Below are positions 33,540-55,754 of a stretch of DNA of 64,000 bases, piece after piece. The DNA is taken from contig CAYPGQ010000005.1 in the NCBI GenBank assembly GCA_964410125.1, forward strand, positions 21,395 to 85,394, given 5' to 3'. This stretch comes from an uncultured Eubacteriales bacterium (GTDB taxonomy: Bacteria; Acidobacteriota; Aminicenantia; Aminicenantales; Aminicenantaceae). The translations under genes were made by a program, and so were the position numbers. The notes beneath the pieces were generated by a model that did no database searches, had not been told where the DNA came from, and was given only the letters and a program-made list of their open reading frames with translations. Every line of letters begins with the position of its first letter. Position 1 is the first letter of the stretch.

Positions 33540-33938
33540 CTATTTTATTTTCAGGGCAATAAGCTTTTTCACCTGTTTTATAATGGCGGAAACCGTATTT
33601 TCGACGATTATCCGGCCTTTTTCCCTGGTTGCCAGGGTAGGATCCCCCCATATTCCTGTGGGGCTGAAGTGCTCTTTTCCATCAGGATCGCGCGTCAAAC
33701 CTCTTCGGTCAGGCCGAGAATCATAGTCTTTCACGGCCTTGGACATGTCGACCGTTTCCGGAGCGAGATACAGCATCATGGATGTTTCCCCCTCGTCCGC
33801 ATGTGTGCCGCCTTCTTGGAGTGCTTTTTCCGCTTCCATCCAAGTGAGGTTTTCGAGGACCACAGATGCTTTGTCTGCATAGGATACAAAGGGATTCAGA
33901 ATAAAAAGGATTAAAACTAACAGTTTAAGTTTCTTCAT
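33540..33938 (-). pseudogene. Creatininase-family remnant (internal deletion) with an acquired signal-peptide-like N-terminus
   Basis: A signal-peptide-like N-terminus is followed directly by creatininase N- and C-terminal segments (LENLTWMEAEKAL, HADEGETSMMLYLAPETVD, ATREKGRIIVENTVSAI). The central metal-binding core is missing. Its ATG abuts the radical SAM stop (TAGAATG). Confidence 0.35.
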
Positions 33939-33939
33939 T

Positions 33940-34935
33940 CTAACTCCAGTCGAAAGGATTTTTGCGATTAAAATCCGGTGTCCGGTGTTCCTCTGATGTG
34001 AAAGGCTCGGGTTGGATAAACAAGGTTTCGAATCCGCAATCGAGCGCTTTCTCCACCACTTTGTTATATTCCTCGACATCCAGGGGCCTTTGCAGGCTGG
34101 CGGGAGCTTTGTGGCAGGGTTTGTATTGGCTCATCAAGCTAAGAGCGGTTCCAACCCTGCAATTTTGGGCCAGCCACCGGAGGACCTTTATTGAGTCTTC
34201 GTTTTGTCCGGGCAGAACCAAGTGCCGAATGATAAGTCCTTTTTGTGCAATGTCTTGGTCATCACAAATAAATGCCGGCATTTGGCGATACATTTCTTGG
34301 ATCGAAGCACTGGCAAAAAGGAAGTAGTCGGATGCTTGAGAAAGAGTCTGGCTCAGCTGGGAGGAGAAGTACTTGCAGTCCGGGAGATAGATGTCCACGA
34401 TTCCATCTAAATATTGAATAACTTCGGCTTTTTCATACCCGTTTGAGTTGTACACCAAGGGAATTCGGAGTCCATGGTTGTAGGCCTTTTGTAAGGCTTT
34501 CAAAATGGGAAGAAGAATGTGGGTAGGGGAGACCAGGTTGATGTTCAGCGCCCCAATATTCTGGAGGCCGATCATTTGTGCAGCAATATCATCCGCAGTC
34601 TGTTCTTTTCCTTGGTTGAACCAGCTGAGTTGGTAGTTTTGGCAGAAGCAGCATTTCAGGTTGCATCCGGAGAAAAAAAGAGTTCCCGATCCTGGCCGGG
34701 GAACTGTTGATTTATCCGTTTTTTCGGCACAGTCATGAAGACCGCTTAAAACGGGTTCCTCCCCGAAATGGAGGATAGCATGGGAAAGAATGGCTAGATC
34801 CGCCGTCTGGCAAAATCCTTTTTCGCCGGATTTTCTGTCGACTCCACATTCTCTCGGGCAGAGCTTGCACTCTGTTTCGTGTCTAGCTAGATGATACAGA
34901 GCTTCTTCGATTTTATCTAGTTTTTGCTTTTGCAT
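33940..34935 (-). CDS. Radical SAM protein (PflX / COG1313-like activating-enzyme family)
   Basis: CX3CX2C cluster FFSGCNLKCCFCQNY, an additional N-terminal Cys cluster CKLCPREC, and a TIM-barrel length (331 aa). Confidence 0.7.
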   Translation of the reverse strand: MQKQKLDKIEEALYHLARHETECKLCPRECGVDRKSGEKGFCQTADLAILSHAILHFGEEPVLSGLHDCAEKTDKSTVPRPGSGTLFFSGCNLKCCFCQNYQLSWFNQGKEQTADDIAAQMIGLQNIGALNINLVSPTHILLPILKALQKAYNHGLRIPLVYNSNGYEKAEVIQYLDGIVDIYLPDCKYFSSQLSQTLSQASDYFLFASASIQEMYRQMPAFICDDQDIAQKGLIIRHLVLPGQNEDSIKVLRWLAQNCRVGTALSLMSQYKPCHKAPASLQRPLDVEEYNKVVEKALDCGFETLFIQPEPFTSEEHRTPDFNRKNPFDWS

Positions 34936-36576: not shown

Positions 36577-36736
36577 GCCAATGCTGTCAATTTAAAACTG
36601 TCCTTAAATAACCTTCTATTTCATCAAACGTTCCCAGCATACACGACGTTGCGACTGAAGGGAGCAATGTCCCGAAGGGCGAGGGCAATATAACCCGTAG
36701 CGTATATGCTGTGCTATATGAAGTGGCGGGATCATT

Positions 36737-39283
36737 TTATCCCTTCAATGCTGAAATTAATTCTTTAACACTTTTAAATATGTATTTTTCAAAGTCTTCC
36801 TGACCTACTCTCATGAATGACCACTTACTCCCCGATAGACCCATAGCATCCTTGCACCATTTTTTCATCCTTTTGTCCTTATGCTCAACATCAACATCTT
36901 CTCTTCCTTTTGTTTCAATAATTAATCGTTCGCTCTCGTCAATTGTCACTAAAAAGTCGGGGTAATATAATCTAAGGTTATCCTTTGAATCTTTATACTC
37001 TACAAAGAACCCTATTTTGGGAACGATTTTACTGAAAGCCTCTACATCCTCAGCTCTGTCTAAAAATTTGGCAAAATCTAGCTCAAAATCATTATCACAT
37101 GGCACATAGTTAAAAATGCATCTATTGGCTAAATAAACCAATTTTGACCATACAAAAGGTCTAGTATCCGAGAGTCTTATGACATCCCTCTTTTCGGGCT
37201 CTCTTTCGGTGAAAGTCATATCTCTGAATGCATTTATGAATAAACTTATCAATTGTTCTTGAACTTCAGGAGAACTCAACTTATAAAGAACTCTGGGGTC
37301 TTCAAGGTCCACTTTCTCTGTAAACAATTTTTCCTCAACATATCTTTTCACCACGGGATAAAAACTTGCAAAGGCACCACCTATTTTTAGTTGTTTAAGT
37401 ATCTGGTCTGTATAATAAGCGATTACACTTTTGGAATCCTGAGGCACAGGCAAATCCCATTTTCTCTTTATAACTTCCATCCCTTTGAGCATATCCACAG
37501 CAATATATTCCATTTCTAAGCTTTTATTTTCTAAAGGAATCTTCAAGAAAGTTAGATTATCAATCTCTATTTCATCCAAATAAAATTCTCTTATGAGAAT
37601 TCTTGGACTCAGGATCGGTATTTCAATGTCCTTATCCAATTTATTTTCATCTATAAATATGGTGGTTAAATTAATCGACTTCCTGATGTCAAATTCGGCA
37701 AACTTTATATCTTCCTGATTTTCTAATTCTTCAAGAATATCTATCAGCCCGGGAGGTCCAATGACTTCGAGAACATTTACGGATTTGACTATATTTGCAT
37801 CTTCTTCTGGAAACATCTTCCTTAAGCCTCTTCCAATAACTTGTTCTGGAAGTACTTTTCTTTTTGAAGTATAAGACCGTAGTCCCACAATCACATTTAC
37901 ATTTCTCACATCCCACCCCTCATTTAACATTAATGTGCTGACTATTGCCTCGTAGGGATTTTTTTCAGGGTCAGGGTTATCAATAGTCTTTGCAAACTCT
38001 CTCGCCTTGGGCAAGTCTGCTTTTTTTACTTCTCCAGTACTATCCGTGTGTATCAATAATACTTTATCTTTAAGGTCTGGAACAGCAGAGTTCACATACC
38101 CAAATATTTCGTCTGCCTCCTTGTTCTCAGGGCATTGAAAGAAAAGCACAGGCTTCTTTGATAAGGGTCTCAATGCCTTTTTGTATTCTCGCCATCTTCT
38201 TATTCCCGCATCAATCCATGCTCTATATCTCTCAACAGCTTTAGTTGAAGCAATCTCGGAAGCATCTTTGACTATACCCTTTAGTGGTAATTTTACGATG
38301 TTCATTTCAATTGCTTCCTTGAGTGAGAAGTCCACGACAATCCATGGGAATAGGGCACCGGTCTCAGTTTTAGGCGTAGCCGAGAAGTCCAACTCCATAT
38401 TAATGCCTTTACCGGATTGAGAAACTAGATCTTTGTTAAGACCTAAAAGTATTTTCTTCCATGCCTTTTCAAAACTGTATATATGGTGGGCTTCGTCCTT
38501 CAAAATCATGATATTAGAGCAGGAAGTCAAAACCTCTTTTATTCTATTTTCTTGATAAATATCAGAAACATTATAAACTTCTGGCAATTCCATAACTTTA
38601 TCTACATACTCTTCTACTTCTTTCTTTTTGCTCTGCCGTTGTTCTAACTGCTGAATATTGGTTAAAAATAGCACACCCTCAGGAATAACATGAATTGGGT
38701 CTTCCTTAAGGATTACTTTTAAGTCGAACTCCTCTTGCCATTCTGGTGGAACAATCGGCAATTCTCTAAATATTTTTCCATCCTTAAAATCTCTGCAAAG
38801 CCTATCATAAATGACATTTTTCTCACCAGCGATAACCAGAAACTTGGATGTGTAATCATCTTTGTTTTCTCTCTTATGATTAAAGTAAGACCAGACTGTT
38901 GTTAATATCATCACAAAAGTTTTACCGGAGCCAGTTGCCATCTTGAATGCATAAAGAGGATATTGGTCATAAGAAGGGTCATACCCTTGTATGGGTCCCG
39001 CTCCAAAGTCCCTTGCCATATCTATAAAGTTTCTCTTTTTCATTACTTCATAAACATAAATCAGTGTTTCAATCGCTTCTCTCTGGCAGAACCAGAACTT
39101 GAAAGGCTCACCATCTACAATATGATCTTCACTAAACCAGAATCGCAACAAACGACGGCTGGTATCTGTTATGTTGGGATAGTCGTCTTCTCGCCAAGTG
39201 ATTACTGCTTTTCTTAGTTCATTAACCAAATATGCCTTACTTGGTCGTCTTTGTTCTGGGTGTAAGAGTTCAGTTGATTTCAT
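36737..39283 (-). CDS. Type III restriction enzyme Res subunit (SF2 helicase + PD-(D/E)xK endonuclease)
   Basis: Walker A MATGSGKTFVM, DEAH box ILKDEAHH, helicase motif VI-like VIGRGLR, and a C-terminal IIETKG endonuclease motif. Confidence 0.7.
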   Translation of the reverse strand: MKSTELLHPEQRRPSKAYLVNELRKAVITWREDDYPNITDTSRRLLRFWFSEDHIVDGEPFKFWFCQREAIETLIYVYEVMKKRNFIDMARDFGAGPIQGYDPSYDQYPLYAFKMATGSGKTFVMILTTVWSYFNHKRENKDDYTSKFLVIAGEKNVIYDRLCRDFKDGKIFRELPIVPPEWQEEFDLKVILKEDPIHVIPEGVLFLTNIQQLEQRQSKKKEVEEYVDKVMELPEVYNVSDIYQENRIKEVLTSCSNIMILKDEAHHIYSFEKAWKKILLGLNKDLVSQSGKGINMELDFSATPKTETGALFPWIVVDFSLKEAIEMNIVKLPLKGIVKDASEIASTKAVERYRAWIDAGIRRWREYKKALRPLSKKPVLFFQCPENKEADEIFGYVNSAVPDLKDKVLLIHTDSTGEVKKADLPKAREFAKTIDNPDPEKNPYEAIVSTLMLNEGWDVRNVNVIVGLRSYTSKRKVLPEQVIGRGLRKMFPEEDANIVKSVNVLEVIGPPGLIDILEELENQEDIKFAEFDIRKSINLTTIFIDENKLDKDIEIPILSPRILIREFYLDEIEIDNLTFLKIPLENKSLEMEYIAVDMLKGMEVIKRKWDLPVPQDSKSVIAYYTDQILKQLKIGGAFASFYPVVKRYVEEKLFTEKVDLEDPRVLYKLSSPEVQEQLISLFINAFRDMTFTEREPEKRDVIRLSDTRPFVWSKLVYLANRCIFNYVPCDNDFELDFAKFLDRAEDVEAFSKIVPKIGFFVEYKDSKDNLRLYYPDFLVTIDESERLIIETKGREDVDVEHKDKRMKKWCKDAMGLSGSKWSFMRVGQEDFEKYIFKSVKELISALKG

Positions 39284-40439
39284 CGCTTGTCACCTTGCAT
39301 CGGGGTATGGATAATATAAATTCCGTTTCCGTTGCATTTAACTTAATCTCTTTGTTTAATCTTTCTCTTATCGTTTTAATCATTCTGGGAACACCACTAC
39401 CGATATCTGTTACCATCCCAATTTTCAAAAGTAGATTATAAATAGTTGGATTTCGAAGGACATGACAGGATATCTTCATGCTATCTATAGTAACTGTATT
39501 AGGTAACCTTCCTGGCGTTCTGATTTCTATTCTGTCCTCAAATATGAATAATCTTATCGGAGCATTAATTGTATAATCTCGATGAGCTATCGCATTTACA
39601 ATCCCTTCTCTTAAAACTTTTTCAGGAATTTCAGGGTATAATTCTGATTCAAAACCTTTTATTTTGTGTTCTTCCTTTATATACAACTTCAGAAATTTTA
39701 ATGAGTTCTCAAGTATATCCGGAATTTTTGCTTCTAAATCTTTTTTATCAGATGGAGGAATAGAAACATCTATACCAGGTATGTAAGCGGCTATAATCTT
39801 TGCGTATGGAATAAATTGCTGAGGGTTTTTTCCAAAAAATAATATCCCAGCAATTGTAAGTTTTTTCTTATTTGTAATAACTTTAAGATTTTTGAGATAA
39901 TTCTCAATTAAACTTTCTTCTGGAGAAATATCTAAATATTTCTCCAGAAAATATATAAAGTAATCCATGTTAAGGCTGCCAAGTGGGGTTTTAGAGATAG
40001 GGGTCTCGTCATAATAAATGCTTCCGCTTGTTTGATAAAGCCTCCTAACTTCTAGCCATGAGGCTTGCCTACATCTATTCCCTGACTTAATATAATAAAG
40101 ACCACTTTTTGTTCGATAAGGTCTTTGCTCCCCTTTAGGAATATTGATAATTAAAACAATTTCACCATCCATATCCACTGTTTCTGGGAGAATACTAATA
40201 GGAGATTCACATCTATTGAATGCAACATCATCAATCTTTCTTACTGCTTCATCCAAATCTTCAACTCCTACAATATCACCTGAGTTGCCAATACCAATTA
40301 TTAATTGCCCACCATCTGTATTTGCAAAACAGACAATTGATTTTGCGAGAGTTTCATTATCAGGTAATCTTTCCTTGAACTCGGTATGTAAATTTTCACC
40401 TTTTAATATTTTTTCCTGTAGTTCCAATGTATCCATCAA
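39270..40439 (-). CDS. AlbA_2 / Schlafen-like divergent-AAA protein with a C-terminal HATPase-like domain
   Basis: N-terminal NLHTEFKERLPDNE...IVCFANTDGGQLIIGI is typical of the AlbA_2 domain. The C-terminal domain resembles HATPase_c_4. Its start overlaps the upstream gene by 4 nt and its end overlaps res. Confidence 0.55.
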   Translation of the reverse strand: MMDTLELQEKILKGENLHTEFKERLPDNETLAKSIVCFANTDGGQLIIGIGNSGDIVGVEDLDEAVRKIDDVAFNRCESPISILPETVDMDGEIVLIINIPKGEQRPYRTKSGLYYIKSGNRCRQASWLEVRRLYQTSGSIYYDETPISKTPLGSLNMDYFIYFLEKYLDISPEESLIENYLKNLKVITNKKKLTIAGILFFGKNPQQFIPYAKIIAAYIPGIDVSIPPSDKKDLEAKIPDILENSLKFLKLYIKEEHKIKGFESELYPEIPEKVLREGIVNAIAHRDYTINAPIRLFIFEDRIEIRTPGRLPNTVTIDSMKISCHVLRNPTIYNLLLKIGMVTDIGSGVPRMIKTIRERLNKEIKLNATETEFILSIPRCKVTSDEIN

Positions 40440-43159
40440 ACTCCCCCATATTTTTCTGCTCTTATTCTGAATGCTTCTTCTCCACCTTCCATAATATTTT
40501 TTACATCTGCCCTAATATCTTCTTTATCAATAGAGCCTTTGTTATTAATAACGCACCTTTCATTTTTAGTCTCTAAAACAAGAACCAATTCAGAGTCTCC
40601 TAAGACAGGGATGTTCGCATTATGTGTAGCAATAAATAATTGTCTTTTCCCCTTTATTTCTCTAAGGATTTTCACTACGTCCTCGTATATAAAACGGTTA
40701 TCAAGGTCCTCTTCAGGCTGGTCAAGAACAACAATCCTATCCTCTTGAGCAAATAGAAGCAATAATAAGGCAGTAGCTTTTTGACCAATAGAAAGTTTAT
40801 TAATTAATTTATATTCTTCATTCACTTTCAAAAATATTTCAATTTTGTCCTCGGGAAAAAAAGTTTCAAGCTCATAAAGTCTTTCGGAATCTTTAAACCA
40901 TTCTAATATTCTACTGGACATTGCCTGAGTGAGATTGAATTCTTCACGCAATTTCTGCTCATTACCCTTGATATATTGGGAAAGCAGAAGACCATCGGTA
41001 ACTTTATTGGGTGATTTAACCAACGCTTCAATAGCATCGCTTGAAACTTTTGAGCCTTTTAATAAGTTTTTTAAATCTTCCATAAAGTTGTCTCTTTCTT
41101 CTTCATATTTCACCTCAATTTTGAGTCTTCCTTTTAAGGCATCGTTTATTTTTTCAAGTTGTTCTTTTCTTATATTAAAAATATCATGCCTCTTCTTACC
41201 TATTTTATTCTTCGATTTCTCCCTATCATTTTCCAATTTTTCAATTTCCATTTCTAGCCTTATTAATTCTTCAATTAACGGTATTAACTTTGCCCTTTCC
41301 TTAGTCAATCTTTCGAGTTCGTCTGGTTTAAGTCCTTTCTCGGCCAATTCTTTTTTTATTTTTTGAATTTTTGTTTCTACTTTTTTCTTTTTTTCTAACC
41401 ATTCAGCATACAAGCCTTCAATACTTTTTCTGGTCTGGTCTGTTGTCTTGGAAAGCTGTTTTTTACTTTGCTCAAATGCTCTTTTAATTTGACTTATCTC
41501 TCCAGCTACCTTTTCCAGTATAAATTTATTTTCACTCTTGCCTCTCTTTAAATTATTTTCTAAATAGTTTAGTTCGGATGCAGATTCATCAAAAAAGAAA
41601 AGCATTTTTTCGTTTATTCCATCAAGTTTTTCAATTGCATCTTGTAATTTTTCTTCATCATCTACTATGTTAGTCCACCTTCTGAGTCTTTCTTCTACTT
41701 TCATACCTTTATAAACTTTTATTCCTGCTTCTATTCCCTTTAATCTTTGCTCATACTCTTCCCTTTTTCTCGTCTTTTCTTTAAGAGCTAAAAGCTTTCT
41801 TCCATTTTCTCTTAATTGTTCAATTAACCTCTTGAATTCCTCATGTAAATGCCTTATCCTCTCTCCTATTAATTCATCAATTAATTGGAGTTGAAAAGTA
41901 GGGGTAATAGAAAGAAAATAGAGTTCCTTTTGACCTATTATAATCGGATATTTTGCTTCTTCGAACAAACTCTGTATAGAAAAACCTGTCTTCACACCAC
42001 TTTCATCAATAATTTCTGTATCTTTCCCTATTGTCCTTTTTATCTCGAATTCCTTTTTCTCTTTTCCATAATATCTTTCAATAAAGACAGAAAGCTCCCC
42101 TCCACTTCCAACAACACTCTCTACAAAATCCATTCGGAAAGATTTATCTGCATAAATTGGTAAATCCATAACATATCGCATAGTTTCTATGATAGCCGAT
42201 TTACCCACACCCCTTCCTCCAATAAATGTATTTAGTTCAGGATTGAATAAAATTTCTATATCCCTCAGAAAAGTTGAGCCATTGATTAGTATCTTTGATA
42301 TTCTATTATGATAAAAAGAAGGACATTCATAAGTCTTCACCCTTACTTCTGGGTCGTGTAGAGCTATTTTTAAAGCACCAATGTTAAAAGAACTTAATTT
42401 ATAATATGTGGTTCTTAATTTACCATCCCTCTTTTTAGTGCCTATATCGTCAAGACTTTTAGGGTCAGTATTTTCAAGGATTGCTATTTTTTTAAAATAA
42501 TCAGATGGAAGTTCATTTGTAGATATAAGTTTATTTTTTCCTTCCTCAGAGATATATTCAATAGCATCAGGCTTTACATTCATCAAATACTTTGCAGATT
42601 GGGAAGGATTATAAGTATGAAGAAGTCCTTTATCATTTTCTAGGTGTGGAAATACAACCAAACATTTATATTTTTCTCGAATTTTACTTATCAACTTTTC
42701 CAGTTCTAATTCACTTTCAATATCTCTATGTTTTCTTCCGTCAACTAAGGATTTTTGTGGATTCTTGTCTAAACTGTGTAGAAATGTATTTAAACCTTTA
42801 ATATCCACATTTTGCTCAAAAATTAACAACAAATGAAGACCATATTTCCCACTTAATTTTAATGAAAGCTCAACTCCTGGAAATATTACAATTCCTTTAT
42901 CTTTAGCCTTATTCTTTATTAACTCAAACCAATCCTTTCTCAATCCGTTATAATCTGTAATAGCTCCTATCTTAATCTGCGCTTCTTGTATTTTCTTTAT
43001 ATATTCTTCTACTAATTTTTCACACTCGTTATTGGAATCTAAATTAATCCCTGGTGGTAATGTAAGACTTTCTACACCTGGAGAATGCAGATGTAAATCT
43101 GTCTTCACCCAATTTGCCCCATTATAACTTTTGTCATTCATAGTAATTAACTCTTTCAT
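40436..43159 (-). CDS. PHP-domain phosphoesterase fused to a Rad50/SMC-like ABC ATPase with a long coiled coil
   Basis: N-terminal DLHLHSPG and FPGVELSL PHP motifs. Walker A IGGRGVGKSAII at about residue 316. A coiled coil of about 350 aa. C-terminal signature SIGQKATALLLLLFA, Walker B VVLDQPEEDLD and H-loop IATHN. Confidence 0.5.
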   Translation of the reverse strand: MKELITMNDKSYNGANWVKTDLHLHSPGVESLTLPPGINLDSNNECEKLVEEYIKKIQEAQIKIGAITDYNGLRKDWFELIKNKAKDKGIVIFPGVELSLKLSGKYGLHLLLIFEQNVDIKGLNTFLHSLDKNPQKSLVDGRKHRDIESELELEKLISKIREKYKCLVVFPHLENDKGLLHTYNPSQSAKYLMNVKPDAIEYISEEGKNKLISTNELPSDYFKKIAILENTDPKSLDDIGTKKRDGKLRTTYYKLSSFNIGALKIALHDPEVRVKTYECPSFYHNRISKILINGSTFLRDIEILFNPELNTFIGGRGVGKSAIIETMRYVMDLPIYADKSFRMDFVESVVGSGGELSVFIERYYGKEKKEFEIKRTIGKDTEIIDESGVKTGFSIQSLFEEAKYPIIIGQKELYFLSITPTFQLQLIDELIGERIRHLHEEFKRLIEQLRENGRKLLALKEKTRKREEYEQRLKGIEAGIKVYKGMKVEERLRRWTNIVDDEEKLQDAIEKLDGINEKMLFFFDESASELNYLENNLKRGKSENKFILEKVAGEISQIKRAFEQSKKQLSKTTDQTRKSIEGLYAEWLEKKKKVETKIQKIKKELAEKGLKPDELERLTKERAKLIPLIEELIRLEMEIEKLENDREKSKNKIGKKRHDIFNIRKEQLEKINDALKGRLKIEVKYEEERDNFMEDLKNLLKGSKVSSDAIEALVKSPNKVTDGLLLSQYIKGNEQKLREEFNLTQAMSSRILEWFKDSERLYELETFFPEDKIEIFLKVNEEYKLINKLSIGQKATALLLLLFAQEDRIVVLDQPEEDLDNRFIYEDVVKILREIKGKRQLFIATHNANIPVLGDSELVLVLETKNERCVINNKGSIDKEDIRADVKNIMEGGEEAFRIRAEKYGGV

Positions 43160-45198
43160 TTTATCTTCACCTTCAAAACTTTATTTGTGTCATTCCCAAA
43201 CACATCCACAACTTTTGTCATTATCTGATATTCCCCTGCCTCTTCGTATTTGTGTCTAGCTTCATACTCTACTTTTGGATTCTTCTTCATCCTGAAACTC
43301 TGCCATTGATTATGAAAAGTATCGCCTTTGTAACCCCAGTCAATCGCCCAGTAGTCTATGAGCTCTCTTGAATCCTTTACCTTACAAGCGATTTCTGCAA
43401 GCTCCGCAGTTGGTGCAAGCTGAAAGTCTGTGATTTTCAGTTCTACTTCTTCCTTTTTCATTTTTGTTTCAATCTCCAAATAGGCAACTTCTGGGAATCT
43501 CACATATTTAGACAGTTCTTTTTCAATAACATCATCCCTTATTTTCAATAGTTGCAGGTCGAAACCCACTAAAGAAGATTTGATTTCATTCACTGATGGT
43601 ATTTGAACCAATTTCAAATCAACTCCGTTTTTCTTTGCTAATTCTTTTGCCAGCTCATTTACCTCATAACTCCACTCCCAGCCCAAAACATCTGCCTTAT
43701 TGAAATTATTGCTTTTACATTCAATTACAACCTTCTCAACTTCTTCCATCGTAACAGGAGCGTTCAAAGGACCAACATGTACTGCCCTCTCTCCTTTCCT
43801 TCCATGCAAATATCTAAACCCTGTTAGAGGTTGAGATTGATAGAGTTTGAGCATAAAAGCGAGGTATTCATCCTCTCTTTCCTGCCAGTAAACTGTTTCA
43901 TAATTTCCGATATTCCAGAGTTCAAAAGGTTTTGCTGGCTTTTCATAATTCTTTTTGTTTTCATCTTGTAAATCCTTTGAATTGTGAATATCTAAAAGCC
44001 TCTTTCTTGTAATTTGAATCGCAAACTTGGATAAATCAGAGCCTATCCATCTTCTACCGAGTTTCTCTGCAACCGCTAAAGTTGTGCCGGAACCGCAGAA
44101 GAAGTCAGCTACAATATCGCTTGGGTTAGAAGATGCAAGAATGACGCGTTTCAGGAGAGCTTCGGGTTTTTGAGTATCGAAGTCTAAACGCTCTGCACTG
44201 TTTGCTGAAATCGGAGCAACTTCATCATCTTTCCAAAGGTCCCCCAAGTAATTGCCTGCTTTTTCATCCAAGTATCTCTTTATCCTTGGGAGGCCGGATG
44301 ACGTAAAAATAATTTGCCCTTCGTCCATGGCTTTGTTAATCTTTTCTTGGTCCCAAATCCAATGTTTACCCGGTGGCGGATACAATAGCTTATCTCCGAA
44401 ATAACGTGGCGGGCCGCTTCCTTTCTGTGTAAAATCGAAAGAACCGTATCTCCGTCCGCTTTCCTCCTCTACATATGGGTAAACCTCCTCATCTTTTTCT
44501 CCTCTAATAAATTGTGGGTTGAAAATAGCACTGTTAGACTTTGAGTATATTAAGAGCATGTCCTTAACGTTACTGAAGAATTTGCTCTGGACTTTTGCAG
44601 CAGTCAGTTTGCGCCAAGTGATTTCATTTCTAAAATTCTCATACCCAAAAATTTCATCCATCATTACCTTAACATAATGTCCCACATGCCAGTCTAAATG
44701 CACATAAATAGAACCATTCTCAGCCAATAACCCCCTAATCAAAACCAATCGTTCGTACATATACTTGAGATAAGAAGCAATGCCACCGCTCCATGTATCT
44801 TTGTATGCTCGCTCTTCAATTATAGACGGCTCTTTTTCTATTCTCTCGTCTCCGAGTTTTGTTCTAATGGTAAAATCTGCTCCAGTAAAAAAGGGTGGGT
44901 CAATATATATCAGATTTATCTTACCAGCCCAGCCCTGCTTTATTAGAGAACTCATCACAAGCTTGTTATCCCCCCAGATGAGTTTGTTTTTCCAGTCCTT
45001 TGAATAGTTCTCAGGATACTCATTCTCCGGGAATAGTGAAACTGTATATCCTCCCTTAATTCTAGGTTTATTTACTGTTTCCACTACTTGAAAGGGAAGA
45101 TTTGGTTTCTCAACAGGTATCTTTTCCCCTTTCTCATATTTATCATATTTTTCTTCCCAAAGCAGCTCCACATATTTTTTGTTATGTGCCATATTCAT
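43156..45198 (-). CDS. Type III R-M Mod subunit (beta-class N6-adenine DNA methyltransferase)
   Basis: Motif IV IYIDPPF precedes motif I FFCGSGTT, which is the beta-class order typical of Mod proteins. Length 680 aa. The stop overlaps the next gene by 4 nt. Confidence 0.75.
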   Translation of the reverse strand: MNMAHNKKYVELLWEEKYDKYEKGEKIPVEKPNLPFQVVETVNKPRIKGGYTVSLFPENEYPENYSKDWKNKLIWGDNKLVMSSLIKQGWAGKINLIYIDPPFFTGADFTIRTKLGDERIEKEPSIIEERAYKDTWSGGIASYLKYMYERLVLIRGLLAENGSIYVHLDWHVGHYVKVMMDEIFGYENFRNEITWRKLTAAKVQSKFFSNVKDMLLIYSKSNSAIFNPQFIRGEKDEEVYPYVEEESGRRYGSFDFTQKGSGPPRYFGDKLLYPPPGKHWIWDQEKINKAMDEGQIIFTSSGLPRIKRYLDEKAGNYLGDLWKDDEVAPISANSAERLDFDTQKPEALLKRVILASSNPSDIVADFFCGSGTTLAVAEKLGRRWIGSDLSKFAIQITRKRLLDIHNSKDLQDENKKNYEKPAKPFELWNIGNYETVYWQEREDEYLAFMLKLYQSQPLTGFRYLHGRKGERAVHVGPLNAPVTMEEVEKVVIECKSNNFNKADVLGWEWSYEVNELAKELAKKNGVDLKLVQIPSVNEIKSSLVGFDLQLLKIRDDVIEKELSKYVRFPEVAYLEIETKMKKEEVELKITDFQLAPTAELAEIACKVKDSRELIDYWAIDWGYKGDTFHNQWQSFRMKKNPKVEYEARHKYEEAGEYQIMTKVVDVFGNDTNKVLKVKIK

Positions 45199-45297
45199 TT
45201 CCTCTTTTACACCTCAATACCGCCATTTCATATAACATTTTTCGCTGTTTATGAAGTGCGAGCGATAGCGATCATCTGGGTGAGCGGAGCGAACCAC

Positions 45298-45310
45298 AAA
45301 CACCGTGTTA
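45298..45310. promoter_or_regulatory. Dyad-symmetric 13-mer AAACAC-C-GTGTTA about 100 bp upstream of the mod operon start
   Basis: Shares the 12-mer AACACCGTGTTA with 55998..56010, where it forms a perfect 6-1-6 palindrome (TAACAC-C-GTGTTA) about 60 bp upstream of the ATPase operon. Confidence 0.25.
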
Positions 45311-45358
45311 GATGAAGTTGCTGCCGATCTATTTTTTATCTTCTCTCTATAAATCACG

Positions 45359-46087
45359 CTATATTCCTCCTAAAAATGACTTTCTTACCTTATCATTTTC
45401 AAGGAGGTTTTTTGCTTTGTCTTCAAAGGCAATTTTGCCTATTTCAAACACATAGCCTCTATCTGCATATTCTAAAGCCATTCTCGCATTCTGCTCAACA
45501 AGGAGAATGGTTGTTCCATCTTTATTAATCTCTTTTATCTTCTCAAATACAGTATTCACATAATTCGGAGAAAGTCCCAGTGACGGTTCATCCAATAAAA
45601 GCAGTTTTGGTTTTAACATCAGGGCCCTACCAATAGCAAGCATCTGTTGTTCACCACTGCTTAATGTTCCTGCTCTTTGTCTCTGTCTCTCCTTAAGAAG
45701 TGGGAATATGCTGAATACCTTATCAATATATTCTTGAAGGGTTTTTTTATTACTTCTCGTGTATGAGCCCATTTCCAGATTCTCTAAAACGTTCATTGAA
45801 GTAAAGACCCTTCTTCCTTCTGGCACCAGACAAAGTCTTTTCTCAACTAACTGATACGGCTGCTTACTATTTATGTTTTCTCCTCGATATAAAATCTCTC
45901 CCGACTTAGGTTTCACCAGACCACAAATTGCCTTTAAGGCGGTAGATTTACCAGCACCGTTTGGACCTATCATTGCCACGATTTCTCCCTCACTTATATT
46001 GAGAGAAATGTCATCCAGAGCAAGGACAGTATCGTAATATACTGTTAAGTTTCTTACCTCAAGAAGCACTTTCACGCCTCCTGCCAA
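45359..46087 (-). CDS. Branched-chain amino acid ABC transporter ATP-binding protein (LivF-like)
   Basis: Walker [10 protein letters not shown], signature LSSGEQQ, Walker B LLLLDEPS. Confidence 0.8.
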
Positions 46088-46841
46088 GATAGGCTTCTAT
46101 AACCTTATCATTTCTGGTAATCTCTTCTGGAGGTCCTTCAGCAATCTTTTGACCATAGTTTAATACAATGACATTATCAGAAATTCCTGTTACTACTTTC
46201 ATATCATGCTCAATGAATAGAATCGTCTTGCCCTTTGTTTTTAATTTCTTTAGCACATCCAGTATCTTAACTCTCATATTAGGGAAAACCCCGGCTGTTG
46301 GTTCATCCAATAAAAAGAGTTCGGCTTCCATTGCCAATGCTCGGGCTAATTCAAGCAATCGTCTCTGTCCATGAGATAAATTCTGTGCAAGTTCTTCTTT
46401 TTTGTCTATAAGACCTACCAATTCAAGATATTCCAGAGCCTTCTCTCTATTTCTCTGCTCCTCGTCCTTCATAACCTTCGATTGAAGAAGCGCAGATATA
46501 AGTCTCTCACCTTTATCATATTTAGTTGCAAGCAACATATTCTCCATGACCGTAATCTGTGGGAAAAGCCTGATATTTTGAAATGTCCGTGAGATGCCTA
46601 ATTTAGCTATCTTGTAAGGTGGCAGATTAATAATCCTTTTATTTCTAAAATATACATCTCCAGATTGAGCATTGTAGAATCCAGAGATTATATTAAACAC
46701 TGTCGTCTTACCTGCACCATTAGGACCAACCAGGGCGTTTATAGTGGCTGGTTCAATAGAGAAGTCCAGGTTGTCTACTGCAACAATTCCATCAAATTCT
46801 TTAGAAAGATCTTTAACTTCTAATAACATCTCATCACTCAC
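46059..46841 (-). CDS. Branched-chain amino acid ABC transporter ATP-binding protein (LivG-like)
   Basis: Walker [10 protein letters not shown], signature LSHGQRR, Walker B LFLLDEPT. Confidence 0.8.
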
Positions 46842-47707
46842 TTGAATTGATACCTTCCCATTATGCCTTGTGGTCTCTTGATCATAAGCACAACCAAAAG
46901 CAATCCATATAGCATCTGTCTCATCGGAGCTGCAATTGATGACGGCATACCTAGAAATCTAAGAAGTTCAGGGAAGACCACAAGAATTACTGCTCCCGCT
47001 ATAGAGCCTGATATACTTCCCATTCCGCCAAAAATAACCATAAGGAGGATGGTAATAGATTCCATTACAGTAAAGCTCGATGGATCAATGAAGGTTATGT
47101 AATGGGCATAAAGGCTCCCAGCAATCCCAGCAAAGAATGCTCCAATAATGAAAACCAATATCTTGTGCTTGGTTGTATTTTTTCCTAATGCCTGTGAGGC
47201 AATTTCATCTTCCCTGATAGATCTCAATATTCTGCCAAAAGGGGAATTCACTACTCTTCTTACAACAAAGATAGTAATTATCACAAAAACTAAAACCAGT
47301 AATAGGTAGGACCATATTTCTGACAAGTGAAAACCGAAAACGGAAAACCCAGGTATTCCAGGAAGTCCCATTGGACCTCTTGTAAGAGATACCCAGTTCT
47401 TAGCAATGGAGTAAATAATTATCCCTAATCCGAATGTTGCCAGAGCAAGATAATCTCCCTTCAGTCGCACTGCCGGATAGCCTATTACAATGCCTGAGAG
47501 TGCCGCTACACACGCTCCTATCGACAATCCTATCCAGGGAGATAAATCCATATTTAATGCAAGGAGACTTGATGTATATGCCCCTATACAAAAAAAGGCT
47601 GCATGACCCAGTGCTGGTAGGCCTGTATATCCCACAATGAGATTAAGGCTCAGGGTAAGAATTATGTAAATCCCAGCAATAATAAGTATATGTAAGAGAT
47701 ACTCCAT
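46838..47707 (-). CDS. Branched-chain amino acid ABC transporter permease (LivM-like)
   Basis: Polytopic permease. Overlaps the adjacent genes by 4 nt. Confidence 0.7.
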
Positions 47708-47711
47708 AGCC

Positions 47712-48590
47712 TTAAATTGTGTCCTTTTCTGTTTTGGTACCTAAAAAACCCCATGGTCTTATCAAAAGAAAAATTATAAGGATAACAAACGCTATACAAT
47801 CCTTCCATCCGGCTGATATTTTCCAGATACCAAGATTCTCAGCTAATCCCAGAAAGAATCCACCCAGCACTGCACCTGGAATACTACCGATGCCACCGAT
47901 AATAGAGGCAATAATTCCCTTCAAGAGAGCGCTGAATCCCATTGTTGGTTCAATATTTGTTTCAAAGGAAATAAGTATCCCAGCAGCACCGGCTAATGCA
48001 GAGCCTATGGCAAATGAAGTCAAGACTATCTTCTCGGGATTTATACCAACAATATTTGCCGCTATGGGATCATCAGACACCGCCCTCATTGCCTTGCCGA
48101 GCTTTGTCTTCTGGATAAAAAGCAAGAGTAGTATCATAAGAATGATTGAGACCGCTAAAATTAAAATCTGGATATCAGTAATCACGGCGCCAAGAAAATG
48201 GTGTCCTTCTTTAATAGGGCCGGTTCTTATTGTAAGAATCTGTGCTCCATAGAGCAGTTGAATCAGGTTTTGAAGGAAGATAAAGACACCGAATGATGCA
48301 AGGAGAAAAATCAGGTTAGATGCATTCTGTTTGCGAAGGGGATGATAGACGAATCTATCAATGGCTATACCTAAAAGTCCTGCTAAAATTATCGCTGAAA
48401 AAAAAGAAAGGACGAAATTGAGGTGCAAGGAAATAATTAGTGTATAAGCAAAATACGCACCGGTCATATAAACCACCCCATGAGCAAAGTGAAAAAACTT
48501 TACCGTACGATAGATTACAGTAAAGCCTATAGCAATGAGGGCATAAATGCTGCCTGCGATTATGCCGTTAAGTATTAATTGTTGTATCAT
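47712..48590 (-). CDS. Branched-chain amino acid ABC transporter permease (LivH-like)
   Basis: Polytopic permease immediately upstream of the LivM-like gene. Confidence 0.7.
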   Translation of the reverse strand: MIQQLILNGIIAGSIYALIAIGFTVIYRTVKFFHFAHGVVYMTGAYFAYTLIISLHLNFVLSFFSAIILAGLLGIAIDRFVYHPLRKQNASNLIFLLASFGVFIFLQNLIQLLYGAQILTIRTGPIKEGHHFLGAVITDIQILILAVSIILMILLLLFIQKTKLGKAMRAVSDDPIAANIVGINPEKIVLTSFAIGSALAGAAGILISFETNIEPTMGFSALLKGIIASIIGGIGSIPGAVLGGFFLGLAENLGIWKISAGWKDCIAFVILIIFLLIRPWGFLGTKTEKDTI

Positions 48591-48868
48591 TTGTTTTTAT
48601 TATATATATTTTTATTCTAAAAGCCTTTCGTCTTTGTGTATCTGCTAGACAAATTTAATTTGTGTCTAATTGTGACACCCCGAATAATGAGAATGTAAAT
48701 ACTATCAACTATTACCCCATTAAGTAGAAGTTGTGAAATCATAGTTTATACTACCTTACTTTTCCAATAAAAACTTTAAATTCCATTGGTTAACCTTTTG
48801 TCAAATACAAAGACTGGAGCCCATCCTTCCCATACTCTCATTACACCATCCTGTCACTTCTGAATAAG

Positions 48869-50785
48869 TCATTGGTGAAGGTTTCTTAAGGGAAAAATCC
48901 TCTCGAAAAACTTATTGAAGACAGTTATTTGGTAAAGGGAGTACAATTCTGCTTTTTCAAGCTCTCCTGTCCAGTCTGATTGGAAAGATTCGTTGTGTAG
49001 CACACTTTTTTCAGGCAGTGCCAAAACAAAGGATTCATCTGCAACTAAAATTGAGTACACCTCTTCCCAGCCCGCGCGAGAAAAAAGCAAAGAAATGAAG
49101 AGACGCATCCACTCTTTTTCTTTGTGCCCAAAGTATAAAAGGAAAATAGCATGGGAATCTTTCAAATGTGCGTATAGAGGATTTCTTGTGGACTTATTGC
49201 CAATATCCATACTTAAAAAATCCATCGATAGATAGTGAGGAGGATCGGCTATAATAAGATTGTAATCTCCGTAATAAATATCGTTGGGTTCTTCTAACGG
49301 TGGTTGCTTTTTATAGTGATTTGTCAACGAAAATATATCAGCAGGCACGATATGAGCTGCACTTGAGACTTTCTCATTATACGGAAAAGGATTTTTATCT
49401 ATACTAGCAATGTTCAGCTGTTCGTCTGATGATCCCCGTAGGAAACACTCATTTAGACCTGTTCCGGAAAAAAGACTAAGTATCTTTAGATTATTTTTAT
49501 TTTTAATTGCTTGTACTACAGATAAGGAGATATATCCTAAAAGCGGAGAGGGGCCGACTTGCTCTGAATATCTATAAACCAAATCTAGCTCGTTTTCCCT
49601 CAATTGTACACCAAGTTTCTCAAATTTCTTTCTGTAGATCCCCAAAACAGAATCATCAGAGACTTCATTCTTTGTCCATTCATATAAGTTAACATCCATA
49701 GCTTCAGTCACCTCAATCGTTGGCGAGATAAAAACATCTACCCTTATCTTTAGTTTATCCACCGGAATTACATTTGTCTTTTCGGTAACTTTCAATTCTT
49801 TACATTGAAGAGCCTCCAAATAACCTTTCATCCAACCATTTAAGTATTCCTCTATTTTATTTAATATCATCGCTGAGTCACTATATAGAAAATTGTATCC
49901 ATCTTTGTTAGAGATATATAGTCTTATTATTAGAACATACGCTGGATGCTTCGGTGAATTTTTGTTACCTATTCGCTCTACCACAAATAAATTGTGTCCA
50001 ATATTATCAACGCTGACTATATCCCTCTTATTCCGAACTTTTATCATATTCTCAACATATCGGTTGGCTTCTCCTTTAAGATGATTAACAAAGTCTTTAT
50101 TGGATATGCAGAAGCGTTTATAGCTCTTTTTATATTCCAAACAAAAATTATATGTAGAGTGAATAACTTCCATAATCCTTTTACATAGAATCTTAAGCTC
50201 CTCATCATACTTATACATATCCGTATATTCTTCCTCTAAAACAAGGGCAATTCCCCCAAGAGTCCCATGTGAATAAATCGCAAATTTAAAGTTTTCATAT
50301 TTTTCCTTTTGAACAGTTAAAAAAGAATACGCTGTAGAAACCACACTATGCTTATAAGTCAAATCTTGAATATCACCAACCAGTTCAAAGTTTTTCCATG
50401 TAGATGGAGATTCCAATTTAAATCCTGCCGGAATGGGTTTTTTTATGCCAAAATGTCTAAGTTTTTCTTCGCTCCTCAGTGCAATATGTTTGTCCCAATA
50501 AATTTTTAAGAAGTCCGCGTACTTTTTTTGGGTTTCTTCCTTTATATTGCCAGTGTAAACGAGTTTTCTATCAGACCTTTTGTAATGGATCCCTCCTATA
50601 GTAATTCCTATAATTTTAAACTTCTTTTGTATAGATTCCCATCGTTTTTCCGCGATGCATTTAACTGGATTGTCGGTTTTATTATTATGCGACAACAAAT
50701 CTCTCCTTATTGTATCCACTATCGCACTTTCGAAAGAAAGGAGAGCTTCTTTTCTTAATTGTAGTTTTTGGTCATTGACACCCAT
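48869..50785 (-). CDS. Hypothetical 638-aa protein with a C-terminal amino-methyltransferase-like domain (FSGTG ... DPPH)
   Basis: The C-terminal third carries LSLFSGTGLNE (motif I-like) followed about 80 aa later by NLIIADPPHY (a (D/N)PPY-type motif IV, gamma-class order). The N-terminal 400 aa resemble nothing I recognise. Confidence 0.4.
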   Translation of the reverse strand: MGVNDQKLQLRKEALLSFESAIVDTIRRDLLSHNNKTDNPVKCIAEKRWESIQKKFKIIGITIGGIHYKRSDRKLVYTGNIKEETQKKYADFLKIYWDKHIALRSEEKLRHFGIKKPIPAGFKLESPSTWKNFELVGDIQDLTYKHSVVSTAYSFLTVQKEKYENFKFAIYSHGTLGGIALVLEEEYTDMYKYDEELKILCKRIMEVIHSTYNFCLEYKKSYKRFCISNKDFVNHLKGEANRYVENMIKVRNKRDIVSVDNIGHNLFVVERIGNKNSPKHPAYVLIIRLYISNKDGYNFLYSDSAMILNKIEEYLNGWMKGYLEALQCKELKVTEKTNVIPVDKLKIRVDVFISPTIEVTEAMDVNLYEWTKNEVSDDSVLGIYRKKFEKLGVQLRENELDLVYRYSEQVGPSPLLGYISLSVVQAIKNKNNLKILSLFSGTGLNECFLRGSSDEQLNIASIDKNPFPYNEKVSSAAHIVPADIFSLTNHYKKQPPLEEPNDIYYGDYNLIIADPPHYLSMDFLSMDIGNKSTRNPLYAHLKDSHAIFLLYFGHKEKEWMRLFISLLFSRAGWEEVYSILVADESFVLALPEKSVLHNESFQSDWTGELEKAELYSLYQITVFNKFFERIFPLRNLHQ

Positions 50786-50801
50786 TTATTCCGCTCCTTC
50801 G

Positions 50802-51824
50802 TTACTTCAAATGTGGGTAGGAATCAGTATATTTCCATGCAGGATCGTAAAAGAACATTAGAAATATTTTGTTCTTAACCTTCTTAGCCATTTTAAGACA
50901 TGCCATTAGGGTCAAGCAGGAGCTTCTACCAACGAGTTGTTCTTCTATTCCATGCAGAAGTTTTTCACCTTCTTTATAAGTGTCTTGTGGGAGTAGAATA
51001 AAATCATCTATTATATCTAAATTAATATCTAATTTCTCTGGAGGCAAACCGAATGGCGCGATTCCGTATATCTCATGAATAAGTTTTTCGCGGTCTAACA
51101 CTTCCCCTTTTGCTTTTAGTGTTTGAATCATAGGAAGCTCAGAAGGTTCCACAACAATAACTTTTTCTGAATTCAGAGTTGCCTTCAGATATTCTCCACT
51201 CCCACTTATAGTGGTACCTGACCCTACAACTCCTACATGAAAGTCAGGCATTACACCATAATTCTTTTTAATAATAAACAAAGTATCCTGCATAAGTTTA
51301 TGAAAAGCCTTTTTAGCACTTGGGCTTATTTTAGTAACACAGTATAGCCGATGAGGATTCTCTCCGATTTTTCCGCCCTTTTTTACTTTGTCCTCATTTA
51401 AAATTTCCTCTAACTTTTTGACATAGCCTTTTGCATATTCACCAGCAGGAGAAAAGACTACTTCGCAACCATATTCTTTTATCTGCTCTACTCTTGCCTG
51501 AGGGGTGTCTTTGTGGGTAATGACTGTGCACTTTTTGTATCCCAGTAAGGTCGCACATTTTGCAAATGCGGCTCCTGCATTCCCCGTGCTGGCTTCTATC
51601 ACTGGTGTAATACCTGCTACAATATATCCTTTCTCCTCAGCCTCCTGAAACAAAATTGGATAAATCCTGTCAAATGTGCTCCCCGTAGGATTCTTCCATT
51701 CTTCAATTGCGAATATCCTGTTTCTATTAGGTATTTCTATCTTCTTGATTTCATATACCGAGGCGCGAATTACACTTATCTCTTTATACAGTTTTTCTCT
51801 ACTTTCAGGTAACATTGTCTTCAC
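50802..51824 (-). CDS. Cysteine synthase-fold (PLP fold type II) protein lacking the Schiff-base lysine
   Basis: Aligns to the CysK/threonine synthase signature across NPTGSTFDRI (canonical NPSFSVKCRIG / NPTGSFKDRG), ASTGNAG (TSGNTG) and GVVGSGTTISG (GVGTGGT). The PLP lysine position is Phe. It overlaps the SBP gene by 4 nt. Confidence 0.6.
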   Translation of the reverse strand: MKTMLPESREKLYKEISVIRASVYEIKKIEIPNRNRIFAIEEWKNPTGSTFDRIYPILFQEAEEKGYIVAGITPVIEASTGNAGAAFAKCATLLGYKKCTVITHKDTPQARVEQIKEYGCEVVFSPAGEYAKGYVKKLEEILNEDKVKKGGKIGENPHRLYCVTKISPSAKKAFHKLMQDTLFIIKKNYGVMPDFHVGVVGSGTTISGSGEYLKATLNSEKVIVVEPSELPMIQTLKAKGEVLDREKLIHEIYGIAPFGLPPEKLDINLDIIDDFILLPQDTYKEGEKLLHGIEEQLVGRSSCLTLMACLKMAKKVKNKIFLMFFYDPAWKYTDSYPHLK

Positions 51825-52942: not shown

Positions 52943-53019
52943 AATTCACTGCCTCCTTATTTCAAAAATTTCATCTTCCGCATTTTAGAATCTTTCAAAT
53001 TTCCAATTATATTATTAAG

Positions 53020-53562
53020 TCAATGATCCTGGGCCATAATTCCGACTTTTCTCAACTGTTCCTTAAGATATTGCTCACTCCTGTTCAATATACCCTTGAA
53101 GTGTTTCCGAACCACAATATCAAATTTAGGACAAAGTTGACTTTCCAAATCCTTCATCCGGTTAGGCCTTAAACTTTCAATCAACATCTCTCTTGTTGGG
53201 ATTTCATCCATCGGGATTTTCGCAAGAATCCAGTTTTCAAGAGGGGCAAGACGTAAGACTGCTATAACAGGTTGGTAGCCATCGTGAGTACGGTCACGAA
53301 GAGCCTGCACATTATCAGTGGTGAGAGGAATTGATAATTTCTCTGTGGTTTTTACCTCAACTGCAAACTTTTGATTAGATTCCGATGTTATATCAATATC
53401 AACTCCTTGCACGCCTCGTTCTACAATATTAGTAAAGCCCATTTCATGGAAGCTGAGAGCCAGTAGTTTTTGTACAATTTTGCCAAAAGGTCCAGATGGT
53501 GTACCTTTGATTCCAAACTTTTTCTGCAACTTCTGTAAAAGTTCAAGAGTTTCTACTTTCAT
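53020..53562 (-). CDS. Small PD-(D/E)xK-fold nuclease-like protein
   Basis: GVDIDITSESNQKFAVEVKT matches the D-x(n)-E-x-K restriction-endonuclease-like core. Its start is 3 nt after the upstream ATPase stop. Confidence 0.4.
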   Translation of the reverse strand: MKVETLELLQKLQKKFGIKGTPSGPFGKIVQKLLALSFHEMGFTNIVERGVQGVDIDITSESNQKFAVEVKTTEKLSIPLTTDNVQALRDRTHDGYQPVIAVLRLAPLENWILAKIPMDEIPTREMLIESLRPNRMKDLESQLCPKFDIVVRKHFKGILNRSEQYLKEQLRKVGIMAQDH

Positions 53563-53564
53563 AA

Positions 53565-55742: not shown

Positions 55743-55754
55743 CGTCTACCTTCA

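Follow-up and report, generated by a model that had tools for sequence, protein, structure and literature searches.

Why should two additional genes lie between mod and res of a Type III restriction-modification (R-M) operon? The question is raised by a 64,000-nt stretch of DNA from an uncultured bacterium of the Aminicenantaceae (contig CAYPGQ010000005.1; the whole stretch is referred to hereafter as the window), in which a TrlF-family gene and the gene for a minimal 'Schlatpase' (a name given to the Schlafen + GHKL supradomain in bioRxiv 10.64898/2026.05.29.728809) separate the methyltransferase gene from that of the restriction subunit. This two-gene cassette recurs in restriction operons across bacteria and archaea, and is probably an undescribed back-up antiviral module. 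A preliminary description of the DNA had reported mod and res with two genes wedged between them, and four open reading frames (ORFs) on the minus strand were found exactly where it had placed them:

43156..45198, minus strand: mod, Type III beta-class N6-adenine DNA methyltransferase, 680 aa (Pfam, PADLOC, motifs)
40436..43159, minus strand: TrlF-family gene, a fusion of a PHP phosphoesterase and a Rad50/SMC-like ATP-binding cassette (ABC) ATPase, 907 aa
39270..40436, minus strand: minimal Schlatpase, Schlafen/AlbA_2 RNase domain plus GHKL (HATPase_c_4) ATPase, 388 aa
36737..39283, minus strand: res, Type III restriction subunit, superfamily 2 helicase-like ATPase with a C-terminal PD-(D/E)xK endonuclease, 848 aa

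The start of the Schlatpase is either an ATG at 40436 (388 aa) or a TTG at 40439 (389 aa; 39270..40439). Read off the sequence, the mod and TrlF frames overlap by 4 nt (ATGA) and the Schlatpase and res frames by 14 nt. At the TrlF/Schlatpase junction, TGATG, the stop TGA and the ATG share 1 nt; with the TTG start, the overlap would be 4 nt. The overlaps of 4–14 nt reported earlier were thus essentially right, except that one of them may be just 1 nt. An identical operon was present on at least four metagenome contigs of independent assembly, and the arrangement is therefore not an assembly artefact. A promoter and terminator scan of the operon gave counts at or below the shuffled expectation.

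Mod matched Pfam N6_N4_Mtase across the full profile (5e-47) and PADLOC MTase_III (7e-107), and had the motif order of the beta class, with motif IV (DPPF, aa 100) preceding motif I (FCGSG, aa 367). Res was recognized by Pfam ResIII (4e-13) and RE_endonuc (5e-5) and by PADLOC REase_III (5e-14), scored 296 bits against the NCBIfam BPTD_3080 family, under the cut-off of 800, and carried GSGKT at aa 118, DEAH at aa 263 and PD...ExK at aa 776–792. The canonical Type III layout, with res directly after mod, is interrupted by the two genes (3.9 kb), the strand being shared and the genes coupled; the same Mod and Res families were found in canonical adjacency at another locus (L049). Catalytic motifs were intact in all four proteins. 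Judged from its sequence, the locus is a functional-looking Type III R-M operon with a two-gene cassette translationally coupled between mod and res.

Pairing of the two genes and their recurrence in R-M operons

Homologs of the two genes were collected in two independent samples. The TrlF alignment served as query for a pattern and tblastn scan, which covered 185,579 species genomes and yielded 69 loci, and a Schlatpase-seeded sample of metagenome contigs provided 80; ORFs were called in the loci and then labelled by phmmer. Essentially all TrlF homologs of at least 27% identity for which downstream sequence was available were followed by a same-strand Schlatpase, and in all 38 pairs the gap between the genes fell between −20 and +12 nt. 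Pairwise identities of the TrlF proteins and of the Schlatpases were closely correlated (r = 0.96; 29 loci, 406 pairs). TrlF lay directly upstream of the Schlatpase in 53 of the 70 informative Schlatpase-seeded loci, and was found without a Schlatpase at three loci (L011, L035 and L041). A distant, mostly actinobacterial clade (22–24% identity) had no Schlatpase partner, and its Ppl and TrlF scores were about equal. We conclude that TrlF and Schlatpase form a co-evolving, tightly coupled, mobile unit, in which, by occurrence, the dependence of TrlF on Schlatpase far exceeds that of Schlatpase on TrlF.

An obligate reciprocal pair was ruled out by the solo Schlatpases, which were 61–87% identical to paired ones. 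One of these, from an archaeon (L084), lay beside an Eco57I-type gene. Another (L083:1-9152) formed the end of a BREX-related-looking locus that comprised an SNF2-NOV_C helicase, a DUF1156 methylase with DUF559 and a DUF499 ATPase. The L083 locus was interleaved with two MNT/HEPN toxin-antitoxin-like pairs.

R-M partners of the pair were found by clustering the neighbouring genes and running Pfam on the representatives; R-M labels were then assigned by phmmer against ten reference proteins picked from those neighbours. Four kinds of context emerged. The Type III context consisted of Mod with either of two Res families. In a Type I context (L020), HsdS was encoded upstream and HsdR downstream of the pair. 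Type IIG-like enzymes of ~1,300 aa with Eco57I/TaqI_C domains accompanied the pair at L016, L017, L025, L030 and L038, and SNF2-Helicase_C-NOV_C helicase-nucleases together with DUF1156 N6_N4 methyltransferases did so at L014, L015, L018, L021 and L024. The Schlatpase-seeded metagenome sample reproduced the R-M contexts of the TrlF sample. The claim that the module is built on a Type III scaffold was accordingly too narrow, since Type I, Type IIG-like and helicase/DUF1156-methylase operons house the pair too, and it sometimes occurs by itself.

In both samples together, an R-M gene was no more than two genes away from 50 of the 63 pairs that had at least 1.5 kb of sequence on one side. Conserved linkage of the homologs to R-M genes, which the preliminary description had set in advance as its own test, was thus found. 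Where both flanks were available, R-M genes occurred on at least one side of 29 of 36 pairs and on both sides of 19. Among ORFs of at least 150 aa, 68 of the 106 directly adjacent to a pair carried an R-M label as compared with 4 of the 138 that were four or more genes away (Fisher p ~1e-27), a contrast that is inflated because the R-M reference proteins came from neighbouring genes.

The slot between mod and res has been filled more than once. Three loci (L123, L126 and L128) kept the gene order of the window, with Res 76–80% identical to that of the window; their Schlatpases were 57–58% identical to that of the window and 77–78% identical to those of Type I or SNF2 contexts (L127, L133 and L014). 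A third pair lineage occupied the same Type III scaffold at L119, and R-M contexts were intermixed in a neighbour-joining tree of TrlF. The intermixed tree and the refilled slot indicate that the cassette moves among R-M classes and has repeatedly landed between their genes. Such repeated landing speaks for position being under selection, and against adjacency by chance. We conclude that there has been strong, recurrent selection for the unit to be placed within R-M operons, which belong to at least four unrelated classes.

A one-off recent insertion was also considered and was ruled out, as the four-gene order holds down to 57% Schlatpase identity. When 2.9 million viral contigs were searched, no TrlF homolog was found, only matches at the level of the P-loop, so there is no sign of a phage-borne cassette. 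The Ppl/TrlF superfamily as a whole comprised 1,244 clusters at 50% identity (E <= 1e-30).

The pair also occurred outside R-M operons. A stand-alone pair 76% identical to that of the window was present in the metagenome-assembled genome (MAG) of a Methanofastidiosia archaeon, and others were found among housekeeping genes (L033 and L051), with an AAA_21/DUF4276 system (L036) and with a KAP NTPase (L050). The last of these, in a Rhodobacteraceae MAG (L050:2096-14000), consisted of two tandem, divergent pairs that share a strand and are separated by ~4 kb; the KAP-family NTPase is encoded upstream. In a Ca. Methanoperedens MAG (L012:2-3874), short fragments resembling Mod and Res came after the pair, and the whole appears to be an archaeal copy of the four-gene operon in decay.

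The two proteins and their known relatives

The 907-aa protein belongs to the NCBIfam TrlF family AAA-like ATPase (NF045780), scoring 481 bits as compared with a curated cut-off of 350, and its residues 13–905 aligned end to end with profile positions 1–944. The paired homologs at L020, L050 and L051 likewise exceeded this cut-off. In Pfam the protein gave weak PHP and SMC_N/AAA_23/AAA_21 matches. An AlphaFold2 (AF2) model built from 23 homologs had a predicted local distance difference test score (pLDDT) of 85, and Foldseek matched it to the heads of SMC, MukB, JetC, Rad50 and LmuB proteins with coiled coils. The domain call made earlier for this protein, PHP with a Rad50-like ATPase, was therefore correct by Pfam, model and Foldseek alike. 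Its parts are as follows:

42332..43114, minus strand: PHP nuclease/phosphoesterase domain of TrlF, aa 16–276 (AF2 model)
41909..42304, minus strand: ABC head N-lobe of TrlF, aa 286–417, with Walker A GGRGVGKS at aa 314–321
41138..41902, minus strand: antiparallel coiled-coil insertion of TrlF, aa 420–674, between the ABC head lobes (DSSP of the AF2 model)
40445..41125, minus strand: ABC head C-lobe of TrlF, aa 679–905 (invariant columns of the 23-sequence alignment A1)

The C-lobe contains the signature LSIGQKA (789–795), Walker B VVLDQPEED (810–818) and the H-loop THNAN (845–849), and Walker A, signature, Walker B and H-loop were all conserved in the 23-sequence alignment. Of the PHP metal ligands, H23 and H25 were present in at least 90% of the sequences, and D69, E97, H109, H172, D232 and H268 were invariant. 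No CxxC zinc hook was found at the apex of the coiled coil, where the loop at aa 536–546 (NNLKRGKSENK) is cysteine-free. From the model, TrlF is predicted to be a single-chain analogue of Mre11-Rad50/SbcCD, in which an EndoQ-like PHP domain is joined to a Rad50/SMC-type ABC ATPase with a coiled coil of ~250 residues. Single-sequence and profile searches of the PDB did not find a solved TrlF/Ppl relative. The origin of the NCBI name 'TrlF' was not traced, the literature giving spectroscopy acronyms and an unrelated tropolone trl cluster.

For the shorter protein, the call of AlbA_2/Schlafen plus HATPase was borne out by Pfam, where SLFN_AlbA_2 (2e-23, 83.7 bits) and HATPase_c_4/PF13749 (1e-17, 64 bits) were both above their gathering cut-offs in one chain. 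The PADLOC SLFN-pAgo model also matched (4e-22), and matches in PDB sequence searches were limited to 3lmm (1e-16) and SLFN12. Two features carry the predicted activities:

40374..40397, minus strand: Schlafen catalytic motif E14-x4-E19-x-K21 of the Schlatpase (ATG numbering; alignment)
39303..39629, minus strand: GHKL ATPase core of the Schlatpase, N-box E277/N281 invariant (alignments)

The first of these matches the Ex4(E/D)xK motif that has been shown to be catalytic (10.1101/2025.07.24.666596, PMC13462974, 10.64898/2026.05.29.728809), and is followed by a Schlafen box, FANTDGG, at aa 37–43. The E-x3-N spacing of E277/N281 is that of RzAgo E314/N318, which bind ATP-Mg (10.64898/2026.05.29.728809). 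The E14/E19/K21 motif, the FAN-x-GG box and E277/N281 were kept in 36 TrlF-linked partners and in alignment A2. A C-terminal helix-turn-helix (HTH) is present in >90% of Schlatpases (10.64898/2026.05.29.728809). The Schlatpase of the window has none, since the chain terminates straight after the GHKL domain.

How new, then, is the pair? TrlF is an NCBIfam family and sister to the validated Ppl, and reports from 2026 associate Schlatpases with R-M and BREX loci (PMC13462974 clusters 2 and 7; PMC12839542; 10.64898/2026.05.29.728809). The cassette had been called undescribed; this holds for the pair as a system, for which PADLOC-DB v2 has no model and the searchable literature no description, but not for the two protein families, which were already catalogued. 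The kind of system behind it, an R-M-linked ABC-ATPase sensor with a tRNase effector, is likewise known. The Schlatpase shares the SLFN_AlbA_2 + PF13749 supradomain, with intact motifs, with the Schlatpase/pSlfn-HisKinase proteins, including SLFN-pAgo. The searchable accounts of Schlatpases name no PHP-SMC ATPase partner, however, and the present clade has neither the usual C-terminal HTH nor any sensor domain.

Ppl (Gao et al. 2020), which has been validated experimentally as a single gene that protects against phage (PMC11482910), also has a PHP domain N-terminal to an ABC-type ATPase, and its homology to TrlF is full-length (NCBIfam Ppl, 6e-71). The TrlF score against the Ppl family NF042955 was 239.5 bits, below the cut-off of 1000, and the PADLOC Ppl match (3e-48) was partial (aa 88–672). 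Ppl acts alone, whereas the TrlF clade found here is almost always Schlatpase-coupled.

The preliminary description had drawn a parallel with PrrC and RloC. PrrC, encoded in the Type Ic R-M locus EcoprrI, combines an ABC-type NTPase with a tRNA-directed nuclease inside an R-M operon as a second-line suicide defence (PMC2610378, PMC12707154), and the pair in the window shares this embedding. PrrC is, however, one polypeptide with a HEPN-type anticodon nuclease and neither PHP domain nor coiled coil, and it is bound to one R-M type, by which it is physically silenced. Here there are two polypeptides, with the nuclease, a Schlafen, on a separate protein, and the pair occurs with many R-M types and in stand-alone copies. 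RloC has a Rad50-like ABC ATPase with a coiled-coil insertion that governs a DNA-break-activated tRNase (PMC3458546, PMC3874168), and is, by analogy, the closest in logic to the mechanism proposed below. RloC unites these functions in one chain, which carries a CxxC zinc hook and an anticodon nuclease like that of PrrC; TrlF, by contrast, lacks the hook, has an extra PHP nuclease and is accompanied by a separate Schlafen-GHKL effector. The parallel thus stands for PrrC in that it is R-M-embedded, and is weaker for RloC, which is rarely R-M-linked (PMC3458546). No PrrC or RloC model was among the PADLOC, Pfam and NCBIfam matches of the operon proteins.

Other ABC-ATPase systems are related in plan. 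PARIS (AriA/AriB) consists of two genes, an ABC ATPase sensor/scaffold and a tRNase effector released when infection is sensed; because what it detects is an anti-restriction protein, it serves as a 'guardian' of R-M (PMC11464382, PMC12707154). OLD, Septu/PtuAB and Retron-Eco7 are kindred tRNA-cleaving systems of an ABC ATPase and a nuclease. PARIS differs in its TOPRIM/DUF4435 effector, in an AriA without PHP domain or long coiled coil, and in not being encoded inside R-M operons. The similarity of TrlF to AriA was weak and partial (PADLOC 1e-6, aa 625–850 in the head C-lobe; PDB AriA 5e-4), and the operon encodes no TOPRIM protein. Lamassu and Mre11-Rad50/SbcCD also use an SMC/Rad50 head with a coiled coil as a DNA-sensing ATPase that controls a nuclease. 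TrlF has its nuclease in cis, as a fused PHP domain, and not in trans as an Mre11-type phosphoesterase; the LmuB match was weak (3e-6, PADLOC) and no LmuA or LmuC homolog was found in the operon. The PADLOC candidates PDC-M49 and PDC-S50 gave short, weak, partial matches and were ruled out as the same system.

The genomic island around the operon

The operon lies in a low-GC island that abuts the 3' end of a tRNA gene:

36599..58795, no strand: strain-specific low-GC island with the operon, 22.2 kb (junction in relatives, GC)
58797..58873, minus strand: tRNA-Pro(GGG), its 3' end abutted by the island

The GC content is 33–40% within the island and 42–49% outside. In relatives (L076-L080) whose surE-region DNA is 88–89% identical to that of the window, the sequences matching positions 36598 and 58796 of the window meet within 35 bp, surE and a merR-like gene being 35 bp apart. 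One member of the 90% cluster to which the SurE of the window belongs is named Candidatus Aminicenantaceae, and the host assignment in this analysis was based on that one name. Since close relatives join its two edges, the segment is a strain-specific island. No direct or inverted repeats of at least 10 nt were found at the island ends, and no integrase was seen. A second defence-like locus occupies 53020..58236 on the minus strand. It encodes a 196-aa ORF and a 492-aa HNH protein, then a 725-aa protein that matches PADLOC LmuB over its full length (1e-49), then a 180-aa ORF of LmuC size without matches.

Cargo of a non-defence kind lies at 45359..52942 (minus strand). It includes an ABC transporter of the Liv type for branched-chain amino acids, with two ATPases, two permeases and a periplasmic binding protein, as well as a PALP enzyme and a protein of 638 aa for which neither Pfam nor PADLOC gave a match. 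Elsewhere in the window, a sequence of ~210 nt (25122..25333) has copies 71–87% identical at several intergenic sites of the L076-L080 contigs and may be a small dispersed repeat or a miniature inverted-repeat transposable element. At 33540..34935 (minus strand), a creatininase-family gene is represented by a 179-aa ORF overlapping a 331-aa radical-SAM ORF. Relatives have an intact creatininase of 267–285 aa (for example L076:12403-13206), and the difference may be due to a local rearrangement or frameshift.

A proposed back-up role and its alternatives

The reading that we favour, at somewhat better than even confidence, is that the cassette is a self-contained second-line defence inside the R-M operon, in which TrlF acts as a sensor that licenses a Schlatpase tRNase. 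R-M would act as the first layer. By analogy with Rad50, RloC and the LmuB of Lamassu, TrlF would face the DNA as a sensor and its PHP domain would be a nuclease; DNA ends or foreign DNA would provide the signal, arising while restriction is in progress, overwhelmed (saturated) or blocked. TrlF would then license the ATP-driven oligomerization of the HTH-less Schlatpase, and may supply the sensing role in place of the absent HTH or sensor domain. The Schlafen domain would cut tRNA, and the resulting stop in translation would lead to abortive infection or growth arrest. Co-transcription with R-M genes would give a layered defence under one promoter, and the model can do without a guard in direct protein-protein contact with the R-M enzyme.

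Precedents exist among relatives. The Rad50-like RloC is activated by DNA breaks (PMC3458546, PMC3874168), the ABC-ATPase sensors of PARIS release tRNase effectors (PMC11464382), and prokaryotic Schlafen domains cleave tRNA in abortive infection (PMC13462974; 10.1101/2025.07.24.666596). ATP-driven tetramerization is required for an active tRNase in the Schlafen-GHKL unit of SLFN-pAgo (10.64898/2026.05.29.728809). The logic also fits the concepts of an 'R-M guardian' and a 'backup suicidal effector' (PMC12707154, PMC12839542). The idea of an R-M-linked second-line defence in the preliminary description thus gains support from the recurrence inside R-M operons; the function is what we infer. Its further suggestion, that the R-M proteins hold the pair latent in the manner of PrrC, is unlikely, because the host R-M machines are diverse and structurally unrelated and because stand-alone pairs exist.

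Several observations weigh against the favoured reading. Solo Schlatpases make up 17 of the 70 informative loci, and because ~24% of these related Schlatpases are solo, the effector does not strictly need TrlF. In one set (L085:5524-6666, with L086, L098 and L100; Desantisbacteria-like), found on >24 contigs, a solo Schlatpase 80% identical to that of the window sits amid housekeeping genes, between fabF and an rnc-containing cluster, with no TrlF or R-M gene nearby. The complete genome at L041 carries TrlF alone, and a Planctomycetales MAG (L011, 2627-6601) has the order Mod-TrlF-Res without Schlatpase and with a TrlF-Res gap of 65 nt, which suggests that TrlF can be retained with R-M by itself. 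Since stand-alone pairs exist, R-M is not required by the pair. The R-M labels rest on ten references taken from neighbours, some metagenome loci are near-duplicates and AF2 modelled the Schlatpase poorly (pLDDT 52.6, from a 21-sequence alignment). Finally, we infer the trigger, the target (tRNA or DNA) and the contact between TrlF and Schlatpase.

A bolder proposal is that TrlF-Schlatpase is a general R-M 'guardian', which would sense DNA ends or stalled complexes of any ATP-dependent R-M system and activate the Schlafen tRNase; we entertain this tentatively, as a possibility.

Rather doubtful is the alternative that the genes are independent neighbours, that is, an autonomous defence pair that hitch-hikes in R-M operons through island clustering or a convenient promoter, with no interplay with restriction. 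Stand-alone pairs, movement among unrelated R-M classes and the activity of the relative Ppl as a single gene (PMC11482910) are all consistent with this view, as is the Lamassu-like locus elsewhere on the island, a common trait of defence islands. Plain island clustering, however, predicts adjacency and not repeated insertion between M and R genes. The pair is operon-internal, with R-M genes on both flanks at 19 of the 36 two-flank loci; in the window it overlaps the coding sequences of both neighbours, and one Type III scaffold slot has been filled by different pair lineages.

It is unlikely that the two proteins are integral accessory subunits, with TrlF carrying out SbcCD-like end-processing after Res cleavage and Schlatpase as its regulatory or nucleic-acid-binding ATPase, such that restriction would be enhanced without abortive infection. 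The Schlafen Ex4ExK motif is conserved, and all prokaryotic Schlafens tested are tRNases (PMC13462974; 10.1101/2025.07.24.666596; 10.64898/2026.05.29.728809). Moreover, stand-alone pairs and solo Schlatpases exist, and the pair fits R-M enzymes of quite different cleavage modes. A role for the 389-aa protein as a DNA-binding transcription factor controlling R-M expression, as C proteins do, is most improbable: the database names 'putative DNA binding domain-containing protein' and 'transcriptional regulator' and the HTH common among Schlatpases (10.64898/2026.05.29.728809) speak for it, but this chain leaves no room for an HTH after GHKL, its nuclease and ATPase motifs are conserved, and it is obligately coupled to the 907-aa nuclease-ATPase and not to a promoter region.

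If the guardian proposal were true, the coupling of DNA damage to tRNA cleavage described for human SLFN11 would have a prokaryotic counterpart in the cassette. The cassette would also be the first in defence to have been adapted for insertion into Type I, IIG, III and BREX-related operons alike. Restriction-first, suicide-second immunity is known from few cases (PrrC, PARIS), and on the favoured reading, of a second-line defence with its own sensor, the cassette would add a widespread R-M-internal example that spans many bacterial phyla and archaea. Direct evidence from evolution that a place within the R-M operon is under selection comes from the repeated refilling of the slot in the Type III scaffold, and the coupling of R-M to abortive infection becomes testable in a compact 8.5-kb construct. 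The common stand-alone Schlafen-GHKL proteins would gain a defined partner, and the uncharacterized Ppl/TrlF superfamily a working model.

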